Shown here in pieces: positions 4,567 through 9,473 of a stretch of 64,000 bases of DNA. Location: positions 1 through 64,000 of the forward strand of contig JAHPZE010000025.1 in the NCBI GenBank assembly GCA_019058365.1. The letters are read 5' to 3'. A program made the position numbers and the translations under genes. Numbering within the stretch: the stretch's first letter is position 1; every line of letters starts with the position of its first letter. The DNA is from Promethearchaeota archaeon. GTDB lineage: Archaea > Asgardarchaeota > Lokiarchaeia > Sigyniarchaeales > SOKP01. The notes beneath the pieces are model-generated. The model did no database searches, was not told the origin of the DNA, and worked only from the letters and a program-made list of their open reading frames with translations.

Positions 4567-6249
4567 GTGGTAATTGTGGATAAAAAGCGAATCTTAAAAG
4601 AGGCTCAACGAATAGCAAAAGATTTTTCTTTTTGGATGGTTTCAGGAAATATAGCTCATTTATATGGCTATGTGCATCAAACTCCTGATGTAAAATATGA
4701 GTTAGAAATTAAATTTGAAGAAGATTTTCCAAATACTCCCCCTCAAATGATTTATCACAATGAAGTTAAAGAGCTATTAGGAGATTTTCAGTTAAATAAT
4801 ATTATTAATTGGACAGCTAATTCGGTTGTAGTTAATATTATACATGAGCTCAAAGTAAAAATTGAAGATGCTCTAAAGCCAAAAGAAGAAATACCAAAAC
4901 GACAAATGATCCCTATAGAAGAAGAGCAAATAGTTAATAATTCATCTGAAAAGGAAGATTATCTTACACCTGATCTAAATGCTTACCCTCCAGATTTTCC
5001 CTATGATGAACATGTTACTCTTTTAGATTCAGCTAGTGATTTATTTTTTACCGAAGAATCGTACGAGAGCACTCCAAATGATTCTGATTCTGCCTTTGTC
5101 GGAGATTCTGATTATGAACCTAAAATGTCCATTCAAGAAGATTTTACAGAAGAAAGAGGAGAATTAAGCGTAGCTATTAATACTGAATTAGGTTTAATTC
5201 AAGAACAATATGCTTATGATCAATCAGGATCCATGGGAGCTCAAATTAATGTGTATATCACTATCACTCTTACCAAAACATTCATAATTTCAATAGATTT
5301 CATGAATTATCCTGAAAGACCAATTATAACTTTGCCTGCTGAAGCAAAAAGCATTTTGCAAGATCCTTATAACTCATTAGACACTTTAAAGGATTGGAAT
5401 CCTAAAAAACCTTCACATATAGTAGATATATTGCATGAGTTGGAGAAAAAACTATATTTTATAAAAGAAATCGAATCTCAATCTAAAAAAATTTCAGGAG
5501 AATATCAATGTGAAAAAGTGCCTGATAGTTTAACTACATTAAAAGTTCAATTATTAACATATGGATTCAAAGAATATACATTGGAGATTGATTTAGATTC
5601 TTACCCCAAACCTCCTAAGATTAATCCATCTTCAGAATTACAGCAAATTATTAAAATTCCCGTCACAGAATTAAAAGTTTATAAAAACTGGGAAGTAAAT
5701 GAATCTGAATCAGTTGAAATCGTAAGAGAGATCTCTTGGTTAGTAGATAAAAATTCAAGAATTAACTTTGAAATAGATTTATTAAAAGATCATTATAAAA
5801 AAATAGAATATGAACCATCCACGGCAACACTGCTAGTAGAAATGAAAGGAAAAATGAAATCAGAAGATCTAACTTTTGAATTTCAAATAAAATTGCCACA
5901 TGATTATCCAATGAAAATGCCTGAACTGAAAGTTTTAAATGAATTCGAACTTGAAGCTCATGAGAAAATTAAAAATGATTTGTACACATCATTTGATGAC
6001 TTTTTTAAAGAATGGACACCCTTTAGTTATCTTGTTGATTTATTCAATCTTATATCCAAGAAAATTTTCGAAGTCTCGGTAGTCTCGTGTGTGATATGCC
6101 ATAAAATCGAATGTCCAAGCTGTTCTAAAAAAATTGCTGGTGACGACAAATGTCATGCTGAATGCCCACATTGTAATAGAGCATATCATGCCCATTGCTG
6201 GGAGCAAACGATTAAATCATTTGGTAAATGTGGTTTCTGTTTAAGGTAA
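4567..6249 (+). CDS. Tandem UEV/RWD (E2-like) repeat protein with C-terminal RING-variant zinc finger; putative E3 ubiquitin ligase (FANCL/BRE-like)
   Basis: Four [YF]Pxx(x)P...W repeats (DFPNTPP, NYPERP, SYPKPP, DYPMKMP), KRILKE N-terminal helix, C-terminal CPHCxxxxHxHC...CGFC. Confidence 0.75.
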   Translation: MVIVDKKRILKEAQRIAKDFSFWMVSGNIAHLYGYVHQTPDVKYELEIKFEEDFPNTPPQMIYHNEVKELLGDFQLNNIINWTANSVVVNIIHELKVKIEDALKPKEEIPKRQMIPIEEEQIVNNSSEKEDYLTPDLNAYPPDFPYDEHVTLLDSASDLFFTEESYESTPNDSDSAFVGDSDYEPKMSIQEDFTEERGELSVAINTELGLIQEQYAYDQSGSMGAQINVYITITLTKTFIISIDFMNYPERPIITLPAEAKSILQDPYNSLDTLKDWNPKKPSHIVDILHELEKKLYFIKEIESQSKKISGEYQCEKVPDSLTTLKVQLLTYGFKEYTLEIDLDSYPKPPKINPSSELQQIIKIPVTELKVYKNWEVNESESVEIVREISWLVDKNSRINFEIDLLKDHYKKIEYEPSTATLLVEMKGKMKSEDLTFEFQIKLPHDYPMKMPELKVLNEFELEAHEKIKNDLYTSFDDFFKEWTPFSYLVDLFNLISKKIFEVSVVSCVICHKIECPSCSKKIAGDDKCHAECPHCNRAYHAHCWEQTIKSFGKCGFCLR

Positions 6250-6326: not shown

Positions 6327-9300
6327 ATGGTTTTAGTGGAAATATTGGATAAGAAGCTGAATTTAAAAGAATTAGAAGAAAACATATTGGAATTCTGGAA
6401 AGATCAAGAGATCTATTCATTGATAAGAAAAAATGAAGAAGGAAAAGAAGTTTGGCGATTTATAGATGGACCTCCCTATACTACAGGCTCCATTCATCTT
6501 GGAACAGCGTGGAATAAAGTGTTAAAGGATTATTTAATAAAATACAAACGGATGAGAGGGTTTAAAGTTACAGATACTCCCGGTTATGATACTCATGGAT
6601 TGCCGATAGAAGTTCAAATGGAAAAGGAATTAGGAATTCAAAATAAGCAAGAAATTCAAGAATATGGGATTGATAAATTCATTAAGAATTGCAAGGAATA
6701 TGCTAAAAAGAATCTTAAAATAATGAACGAACAATTTAAAAGATTAGGATGCTACTTCTGGGACTGGGAAAATCCATACATTACCTTTAAAAATAGTTAT
6801 ATTGAAGGAATTTGGTGGACATTAAAGAAAGCTTGGGAAAATAATTTATTATATCAATTTTATAGACCTTTGAATTGTTGCCCTAGATGTGCAACAGCGC
6901 TCGCTAAGCATGAACATGAGTATAAAAATATTATAGATACTAGTTTGTTCCTAAAAATAAAATCTGTAGATATGGAAAAAACATATTTTATAATCTGGAC
7001 AACAACACCATGGACATTGGTTGCTAATGAAGCTATAATGGCAAATCCATTCATCGAATATGGTAAAGTATATATTGAAGATCTTGATGAATATTGGATC
7101 TTATCGAAAGCTTCAATAACTCATCTTATCTCGGGAGAACTTGGTTATAAATATAAAATTGTAGAAGATTTTACAGGTGAAGATCTAGAAGGGATGAAAT
7201 ATATTCATCCACTTTTAGAAGAAGTACCTTTTCAAAAAGAGTTAGAAAAGCAAAGCGATACAGTTCATTCTATTATATTATCTGAAGAATATGTTTCAGC
7301 TTCAGAGGGTGTAGGTTTAGTTCATTCCGCTCCTGGTCATGGTCCTGAAGATTTTGAAGTTGGTGTTGCTAATAATATTCCTGTTTTTACGCCAGTAGAT
7401 ATAAAAGGAGAATATACTGAAGAAGCGGGAAAATTTAAAGGAAAGTTCGTTTTTGATGCAAATGAAGAGATTTTAGGGTTGTTAAAACAAAAAGGTACAT
7501 TAATTTTAACTAATGAAATAGAACATGAATACGCACACTGTTGGAGATGTGATTCAAAATTAGTATATAGAGCTACAAATCAGTGGTTCTTCAAAACAGA
7601 AAGCCTTGTTCCAGAATTACTTGAAAAGAATGGAGAGATTTATTGGATCCCTGACTGGGCTGGGAGTAGATGGTTTAACAGTTGGTTAAGTTCATTAAAG
7701 GATTGGTGTATTTCAAGACAACGTTTTTGGGGTATCCCTTTAAGCGTATGGATATGTGACAACGAAAAGTGTGGAGATACAACTGTGATAGGCTCAGCTA
7801 AAGAATTAAAAAAGGTAGCTGGAGAATGTCCTGAAGATTTACATCGCCCTTGGATTGATGAAGTTACATGGAAATGTAAAAAATGTAATGGTGGCATAAA
7901 AAGAAGAATTCCCGATATTCTAGATGTTTGGTTAGATTCAGGTTCTGTAATGTGGGCTGCCCAAGAAGTTTATGATGGGAAGAGTCATTTTGATACGTGG
8001 ATTCCCGCGAATTTTATACTTGAAGGAAAAGATCAAATAAGAGGATGGTTTAATACACTACTATGTAGTGCAATGGTATCATCAAGACGTAAAAATTATG
8101 AAGCTTGTTATATGCATGGCTGGACTTTAAGAGAAAAATTAAAAATGAGTAAATCAAAAGGAACTCAAATTTTGCCGGAAGATCTTATAGATGGTACCTT
8201 AGATGAACTTAAGAAAAACAAATCGTTTTCAAAAATAAAAGGAATTGAAACTTTTCGCTTTTATTCGATTGGTGTAACACAACCGGGTAGAGACTTCAAT
8301 TTTGTCGTTAAAGAATACGCTGATACCTACAAAATAATTAATACAATTTGGAATGTTTTTGTGTACGCTAATGAAAAATTCAAATTAGCGGGATTTGATC
8401 CTTCAAAGGAAAAATTGCAACAGAAAAATCTGAGTAAACTAGACAAATGGATGCTTTCAAGATTACATTCTACAATAAAAAAAATTACTCATTTAGCGGA
8501 TAATTATGAATTACCTTGGATTCCGGGTGAGTTAAGAGAGTTGATTGTGAATGATATAAGTAGATGGTATATAATGCTAAATCGAGAAAGACTTGATATC
8601 TATTCTGAAGATCCTAATAAACATATTATTATGTTAGTGTTATTTAAAACATTGTTTAATGTTCTTTTAATGTTATCACCCATAAATCCGATGATAAGTG
8701 AAGAAATATTTTTGAAAATGTTCAAACCATATTTAAATTCATTAGGTTTAGATGAAACAGAGAGTATACATTTACAAAATTGGCCTAAGTTTAATGAAAA
8801 CCTAATAAATTCAGAATTGGAAAAACAGATGCATTTTATCAGAGACTTAATAGAAATTATTCGAGCGTTAAAAGAAGAAAATAAAATAAGAATGAGATGG
8901 CCAAATAAAAAAATAATTATTGAGCCAAAAGATGAAATGCCTGAGATAATTTTTCCTCAAATAATTAAGAAGATTGCTAATGTTAAGGAGCTAGAAATTA
9001 AAGAGGGTGTTCACGCAAGTGATAACTTAGTTAAAGCTGAATCAAAATACTGCAATATTTATCTAGACAAAACAGTTGATGACAATTTATTAGCCGAACG
9101 AATAGTTAATGATTTAATAAGAAATATTCAATTTATTCGTAAAAAGAATGGATATAAAGTTGAAGAAAAAATATCTTTGAAGATTGGAGCGAATTTAGCT
9201 TATTTAAAAGATTTTCTTGAAAAACATCAAGATACTTTTAAAGATAAAATTAACGTGGAAAAGCTTGAAATCATTTCTGGAGATTTGACTGAAGAAGAAG

Positions 9301-9473
9301 GTAAGATTTTTGGAAAACTAAATATATGCCCTAACAGAGAATGCTCGGCTGCATTAAAGGATAATATTATTTCAAAACTTAAGAAAAAAACAGATATAAA
9401 ATGTCCACACTGTAATTCGGGCTTAAATGAGGATGCCATTAATTCGGTTACATTTAGTTTTGAGAAAAAATAA
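6327..9473 (+). CDS. ileS: Isoleucine--tRNA ligase (archaeal/eukaryotic type)
   Basis: DGPPYTTGSIHLG (HIGH), WTTTPWT, DWCISRQRFWG, EGKDQIRGWF, KMSKS. Confidence 0.97.
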   Translation: MVLVEILDKKLNLKELEENILEFWKDQEIYSLIRKNEEGKEVWRFIDGPPYTTGSIHLGTAWNKVLKDYLIKYKRMRGFKVTDTPGYDTHGLPIEVQMEKELGIQNKQEIQEYGIDKFIKNCKEYAKKNLKIMNEQFKRLGCYFWDWENPYITFKNSYIEGIWWTLKKAWENNLLYQFYRPLNCCPRCATALAKHEHEYKNIIDTSLFLKIKSVDMEKTYFIIWTTTPWTLVANEAIMANPFIEYGKVYIEDLDEYWILSKASITHLISGELGYKYKIVEDFTGEDLEGMKYIHPLLEEVPFQKELEKQSDTVHSIILSEEYVSASEGVGLVHSAPGHGPEDFEVGVANNIPVFTPVDIKGEYTEEAGKFKGKFVFDANEEILGLLKQKGTLILTNEIEHEYAHCWRCDSKLVYRATNQWFFKTESLVPELLEKNGEIYWIPDWAGSRWFNSWLSSLKDWCISRQRFWGIPLSVWICDNEKCGDTTVIGSAKELKKVAGECPEDLHRPWIDEVTWKCKKCNGGIKRRIPDILDVWLDSGSVMWAAQEVYDGKSHFDTWIPANFILEGKDQIRGWFNTLLCSAMVSSRRKNYEACYMHGWTLREKLKMSKSKGTQILPEDLIDGTLDELKKNKSFSKIKGIETFRFYSIGVTQPGRDFNFVVKEYADTYKIINTIWNVFVYANEKFKLAGFDPSKEKLQQKNLSKLDKWMLSRLHSTIKKITHLADNYELPWIPGELRELIVNDISRWYIMLNRERLDIYSEDPNKHIIMLVLFKTLFNVLLMLSPINPMISEEIFLKMFKPYLNSLGLDETESIHLQNWPKFNENLINSELEKQMHFIRDLIEIIRALKEENKIRMRWPNKKIIIEPKDEMPEIIFPQIIKKIANVKELEIKEGVHASDNLVKAESKYCNIYLDKTVDDNLLAERIVNDLIRNIQFIRKKNGYKVEEKISLKIGANLAYLKDFLEKHQDTFKDKINVEKLEIISGDLTEEEGKIFGKLNICPNRECSAALKDNIISKLKKKTDIKCPHCNSGLNEDAINSVTFSFEKK

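Follow-up and report, generated by a model that had tools for sequence, protein, structure and literature searches.

A tandem UEV/RWD–RING protein with a FANCL-like layout, a probable ubiquitin E3 ligase of Lokiarchaeia

The spread of non-catalytic RWD domains that contributed to FANCL, BRE and proteins of the kinetochore has been placed between FECA and LECA, and a single Asgard RWD-like sequence has been noted (PMC6601020). A gene in the 64,000-nucleotide stretch of Promethearchaeota DNA analyzed here (the window; contig JAHPZE010000025.1) raises the question of whether multidomain ubiquitin ligases built from such folds are encoded in archaea. A sequence-only reading had proposed that its product combines four catalytically dead E2-like domains with a variant RING in an arrangement resembling FANCL. 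No description of an archaeal tandem UEV/RWD–RING protein was found in the literature searched, most subscription papers lying outside its reach. The gene, the segments of its product and the downstream neighbor are as follows:

4567..6249, + strand: gene for a 560-aa protein with four UEV/RWD repeats and a predicted three-zinc RING (homologues, AF2)
4582..4875 (aa 6–103), + strand: repeat 1 (Pfam UQ_con; profile matches to E2s and BRE; tree and architectures)
4885..5157 (aa 107–197), + strand: acidic linker, poorly conserved and disordered (pLDDT <50)
5164..5457 (aa 200–297), + strand: repeat 2 (AF2, hhalign, profile matches)
5458..5748 (aa 298–394), + strand: repeat 3 (AF2, hhalign)
5749..6078 (aa 395–504), + strand: repeat 4, adjoining the RING, with a canonical RWD/UBC-like fold
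6079..6246 (aa 505–560), + strand: RING (conservation, profile searches, co-variation)
6327..9473, + strand: ileS, isoleucyl-tRNA synthetase (Pfam, synteny; functional link to the 560-aa gene unproven)

A chance or wrong-strand reading frame at 4567–6249 was ruled out by the closed opposite strand and by the homologues, at least 316 of which are labeled by their sources as Promethearchaeota or other Asgard groups; the related loci come chiefly from Promethearchaeota MAGs, which makes the host a probable Loki-type Asgard archaeon. One homologue record is labeled Thermoplasmata, which could represent transfer or mis-binning. The frame starts with GTG at 4567, and the start of close relatives aligns with an alternative GTG at 4576 (557 aa). 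All motifs quoted earlier from the translation were located in it. A promoter and terminator scan based on a bacterial model gave no signal above shuffles. Pfam detects UQ_con and RWD above cut-off; a beta-clamp match from the PDB search conflicts with the fold model and was discarded.

The four repeats are mutually homologous in profile–profile comparison with hhalign, both among repeats 1 to 3 (R2–R3, 4e-22; R1–R2, 3e-16; R1–R3, 2e-14) and with repeat 4 (R1–R4, 5e-13; R3–R4, 2e-8; R2–R4, 1e-8). AF2 models each of them, at high pLDDT, as a meander of four strands that comes after a helix and is closed by further helices, and the hallmarks of UBC/RWD/UEV domains are present (helix, beta-meander, YPxxxP-type motif, closing helix). 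The UBC fold, on which the sequence-only reading had staked its case in advance, is thus adopted by all four repeats in the models. Of 143 repeat instances, one has a Cys in the region of the E2 catalytic cysteine and one has HPN; the repeats of the 560-aa protein have neither, in agreement with the proposal of four E2-like domains devoid of an active site. C315, the sole Cys outside the tail, belongs to the first strand of repeat 3, away from the E2 active-site position, and was rejected as a catalytic residue.

The repeats differ in their setting. Repeat 1 is a free N-terminal, Cys-less UBC fold found in only part of the family, and the acidic stretch of about 95 residues described after it is indeed disordered in the AF2 model. 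Within this otherwise variable linker, TPDLNAYPP (window 4966–4992, aa 134–142) is a conserved short motif that, by analogy with the PxxP motifs in UEV-Vps23, may be a ligand of one of the UEVs. Repeat 2 is a short Asgard UEV module whose nearest solved relatives are UEV1 and the N-terminal UEV of BRE, and repeat 3, the module nearest to repeat 2, is connected to both flanking repeats by long helices, the one to repeat 4 spanning 382–407 in the AF2 model. The profile matches of repeats 1–3 are to E2s, to UEV1 and to BRE (its first UEV) and not to the FANCL domains. It is mainly on repeat 4 that the VIA results bear.

The C-terminal tail, the most conserved region of the protein, contains ten Cys and two His, and the ligand candidates are 100% conserved in 121 close homologues. 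Both the eight-ligand cross-brace pattern and the central helix of a RING are present in the sequence and in the AF2 model. From the residue pattern, C508, C511, C533, C536, H541, C544, C555 and C558 probably form a C4HC3 core, and C516, C519, C529 and H543 are the probable ligands of a third zinc site. Of 68 family RINGs, 53 have every element of this third set (a second CxxC, a Cys 12 residues ahead of ligand 5 and, two residues past that ligand, a His or Cys), 11 have none and 4 are mixed; the 11 include 8 related Jordarchaeia sequences and hence represent few independent events. The C4HC3-like tail with its spare ligands was therefore described correctly from the letters, as the 12 invariant residues and the RING profile matches attest, and the spare ligands co-vary as a unit in a predicted site that is absent from FANCL.

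Which of the two CxxC pairs belongs to the core can be argued either way. Ile510 and the variant P0151 favor the first pair, whereas alignments with Pirh2 and Jordarchaeia RINGs favor the second. P0151 lost the second CxxC, C529 and H543 together and retained the first CxxC; because it lies on a chimeric contig of 718 bases, it weighs little in assigning the register. At L184:79–615, on a chimeric contig, an epimerase is joined to a family tail at a shared short motif, and all third-site ligands are gone.

The best solved matches of the RING profile are Pirh2, RBX1, RBX2 and APC11; RBX1 is matched at E 6e-5 with the third-site spacing in the same register. FANCL is absent from the best 60 matches of this profile, and FANCL_C from the top 25 families matched by the RING. 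RBX1, RBX2 and APC11 share the extra CxxC, the Cys 12 before ligand 5 and the His two after it, residues that in RBX1 form the third zinc site. They differ in being RING-H2 proteins, whereas the core here is C4HC3 (ligand 4 is Cys536), in the separation of the two CxxC pairs, which is just four residues in the 560-aa RING, and in the cullin-binding N-terminal strand, in place of which the RING here follows a helix of repeat 4. RBX1-type RINGs bind three zincs (PMC3166285), and the site held in common may be convergent.

The positions by which RINGs dock E2s (loop-1 Ile, helix Trp and loop-2 Pro) are important when FANCL or a Caldiarchaeum RING binds its E2. Only the first, Ile510, is retained as a canonical residue. 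At the Trp position, four after ligand 6, the 560-aa protein has Thr548 (34 of 68 family RINGs have Thr and only 8, all from Jordarchaeia, have Trp), the Pro after ligand 7 is replaced by Gly556, and ligand 8 is followed by Leu. The docking residues are typical of RING E3s, not obligatory, and active RINGs without the Trp include RNF4 and RING1B.

The 560-aa gene, flanked by a membrane-protein gene and, 77 bases downstream, by ileS, is on the margin of a glycosylation cluster. A conserved downstream neighbor in the host's family, ileS comes next on the same strand in 25 of 26 close loci, with a variable upstream neighbor; across more genera it is downstream in 19 of 28 loci, and in L071 it is divergently oriented. 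In two genomes a 401-aa gene on the opposite strand separates the homologue from ileS (L004:7389–8594; L011:2460). By eye, a large glycosylation and nucleotide-sugar cluster surrounds both genes (window 119–45071), with an epimerase gene and genes resembling those for glycosyltransferases, methyltransferases, the heptose pathway and sulfate activation. The ubiquitin operon of the host, which comprises ubiquitin, E1, E2 and JAMM, lies far from the gene on a different contig, C34. The description of a gene standing alone next to ileS thus applies to this locus and not to the family, as relatives reside in ubiquitin operons.

In four genomes E1 is immediately preceded by a short-branched three-repeat relative, and in one of them the order continues E1–E2–JAMM. 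A 351-aa form (P0164), which is FANCL-sized with three UEVs and a two-zinc RING, heads an operon (L135:3923–9083, also L136) that proceeds with ubiquitin, E1, E2, JAB and a RING protein. The E1 encoded there is no more than 39% identical to the E1s of the 201 Asgard genomes searched. The P0154 gene overlaps a JAMM-RING gene, and a three-UEV protein without a RING precedes Ub–E1–E2 in a further ubiquitin operon. Other members adjoin a PUA/eIF2D-type gene or are near pheT. The operon positions of these relatives back the ubiquitin-system role that had been proposed. In another Asgard class, genes combining a zinc ribbon with UEVs are found beside ubiquitin-like, E1 and E2 genes (L063–L067, L072, L073, L141); the one at L141, with a zinc ribbon, three UEVs and no RING, has a BRE-like layout.

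Among 400 Asgard genomes searched, every one of the seven families in the host's class, the Loki/Hel-type Asgards, had matches to the core of three repeats plus RING (80/134, 1/1, 3/14, 4/4, 3/3, 2/2 and 2/2 genomes); the other Asgard classes searched gave just two partial matches and no full architecture. The core is not universal within the class, since some genomes gave no match, including the closed 4.4-Mb G213. Members carry three or four repeats and varied N-termini, and some genomes encode two or three paralogues; the family tree, rooted at its midpoint, does not reveal in which order events took place. Two three-UEV–RING homologues have an additional N-terminal RING-like finger (L185:2549–3850; L145:5001–6488), one of the two being the record labeled Thermoplasmata. 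Jordarchaeia and Freyarchaeia encode a two-UEV–RING protein (L058:3824–4684 on the minus strand; L059–L062) whose RING retains the canonical Trp, has CxNPxC spacing and matches FANCL_C weakly (E 1.6e-4). By these sequence features it is more FANCL-like than the RING of the 560-aa protein, and over RWD plus RING this protein aligns with listerin (E 0.004) and FANCL (E 0.07).

Considered together, these data make the 560-aa protein a probable RING-type E3 ligase, FANCL-like in layout, that would act in the Lokiarchaeial ubiquitin system. The folds, the missing catalytic Cys, the co-variation of the ligands and the operon context of relatives emerge from the analysis itself; E2 binding, activity and a role toward substrates are extrapolated from FANCL and from reconstituted archaeal cascades. 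A simple model would have the C-terminal RING, with two cross-brace zinc sites and an RBX1-like third, recruit a ubiquitin-charged E2 and promote direct transfer of ubiquitin from it. Repeats 2–4 would form a rigid, helix-linked triple RWD/UEV rod for substrate presentation, non-covalent ubiquitin binding or both, and repeat 1, on its flexible acidic tether of 95 residues, would serve as a free ubiquitin- or partner-binding arm, much like the loose ELF domain of FANCL. Against this assignment stand Thr548, Gly556 and the Leu after ligand 8 at the docking surface, as well as the distance of the host gene from the ubiquitin operon. Described archaeal ubiquitin components (small RING E3s, UEV-Vps23, Prok-RING_1) belong to the same system and share the C4HC3 RING type, but the E3s among them are small RING proteins, whereas this one is multidomain.

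A rather unlikely alternative, favored by the degenerate docking surface, is a non-catalytic adaptor whose UEVs would bind a JAMM deubiquitinase or ubiquitin chains, in the way that BRE acts in BRISC and BRCA1-A. In this reading the RING would be a partner-binding or heterodimerization module, as BARD1 is for BRCA1, and would not activate E2s. BRE (BRCC45/BABAM2) is likewise built of tandem UEVs, ranks second in Foldseek and provides, with its N-terminal UEV, the closest non-E2 sequence match of repeats 1–3 (E 5e-4 and 5e-3); Pfam BRE is weakly matched by 10 of 65 relatives (best 1.9e-5) and not by the 560-aa protein. The UEV–JAMM fusion in the host (C17:10465–11130) and the RING-less three-UEV protein of a ubiquitin operon also favor an adaptor. 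BRE itself works as a deubiquitinase scaffold without a RING. Against an adaptor, the RING here is the best-conserved part of the protein and recurs nearly unchanged on unrelated membrane proteins, as expected of a portable E3 module, and RNF4 and RING1B are active without the Trp. A sub-case of the E3 reading, a translation quality-control ligase acting on ribosomes, stalled chains or a synthetase in the manner of listerin or RNF25/RNF14, is improbable. Listerin/Ltn1 and RNF25 do place an RWD fold near or against a RING, listerin appears among the Foldseek matches and aligns with the RWD–RING tail of the Jordarchaeia protein, and the neighboring ileS, PUA/eIF2D-type and pheT genes would fit. 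Yet those proteins have a single RWD, the long HEAT-repeat, ribosome-binding arm of listerin is absent here, and neighbors differ between families, with ileS divergent in L071 and several families in ubiquitin operons; gene order is also common to close kin without functional linkage. That the tail is instead a PHD-type reader finger, also C4HC3, is hardly credible: the PHD variants that Pfam matches weakly (PHDvar_NSD, E 0.0065) are opposed by RING E3s as the best solved matches, the RING helix modeled after ligand 6, the lack of an aromatic residue two before ligand 7 and the ubiquitin-operon context.

The comparison with FANCL (ELF, double RWD and C4HC3 RING; PDB 3K1L, 7KZP) bears on the ancestry of the probable E3. 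Three Cys-less UBC folds followed by a C4HC3 RING occupy aa 200–560 here, and three-repeat relatives have the same layout in about 360 aa. Long helices connect the RWD folds, 382–407 corresponding to the long kinked helix of the double RWD. FANCL is the best Atlas match and the first in Foldseek (E 6e-8, ahead of BRE and listerin, at a TM of only ~0.25), so that the FANCL-like domain order had been recognized correctly, albeit with low whole-chain TM. The FANCL central domain 3zqs fits the model with TM 0.61 by target and rmsd 4.8, and Knl1 fits as well; for the 351-aa operon form, FANCL clusters are the best feature match (0.92, 184 shared features). The 560-aa protein differs from FANCL in its fourth repeat on a disordered linker, in three rigidly helix-linked folds instead of two, in the third zinc site and in the missing E2-docking Trp.

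Despite the order and size of the three-repeat forms and these structural and feature matches, a true FANCL orthologue in DNA cross-link repair is very unlikely. Pfam reported none of FANCL_d1, d2, d3 and FANCL_C for the 560-aa protein, and sporadic weak d1/d2 matches fall on repeat 4. The definition of the ELF includes a fifth strand (PMC5264512); repeats 1 and 2 have four in the AF2 models. For these two reasons the protein is not classed as FANCL. Since the RING is nearer to RBX1/Pirh2, repeats 1–3 are nearer to E2s/BRE, and the "FG" before the last CxxC, offered as a link to FANCL, occurs in only 26 of 68 family RINGs and was ruled out as a FANCL signature, membership is not established. 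Being the usual type among the host's RINGs, C4HC3 is no pointer to FANCL. PF14631 and PF14675 (FANCD2/FANCI) gave no match in the host, nor in the positive control.

Common ancestry of the whole architecture with FANCL is accordingly put forward as a tentative idea. It is possible, but far from assured, that three UEV/RWD domains and a RING were assembled once in the ubiquitin operon of an Asgard ancestor and led directly to FANCL, BRE (by way of the UEV array) and the RWD–RING tail of listerin being sister offshoots. If true, the radiation of non-catalytic RWD domains started in archaea with a working multidomain E3. Repeats 2 and 3 appear to be duplicate copies of the mobile UEV module, which favors assembly within archaea. 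More generally, a conserved Asgard family of tandem RWD/UEV–RING proteins in ubiquitin operons shows that this multidomain design exists in archaea. An operon with cognate E1, E2, ubiquitin and JAMM is a purifiable system in which to ask if E3s that select their substrates are older than eukaryotes, and if FANCL, BRE and a third zinc site of the RBX1 type are inheritances or reinventions; that of the 351-aa form (L135) is the best candidate for biochemistry.

The UEV module is considered a mobile ubiquitin-system module because of its operon positions and its fusions to JAMM and other domains. The JAMM domain fused to it in the host (C17:10465–11130, L084) has an HSH motif, and a truncated module copy lies at C17:8401–8613. 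By eye, eight proteins join the module to a longin-like N-terminal domain (P0193, P0205, P0216, P0217, P0219, P0223, P0224, P0229), P0224 with an additional ABC-ATPase-like C-terminus. The three-zinc RING is found at 50–62% identity on predicted membrane proteins (P0173, P0180, P0185–P0190, P0192, P0196), which from their sequences are possible receptor-type E3s; several have long, Asn-rich repeat N-termini resembling extracellular beta-helices.
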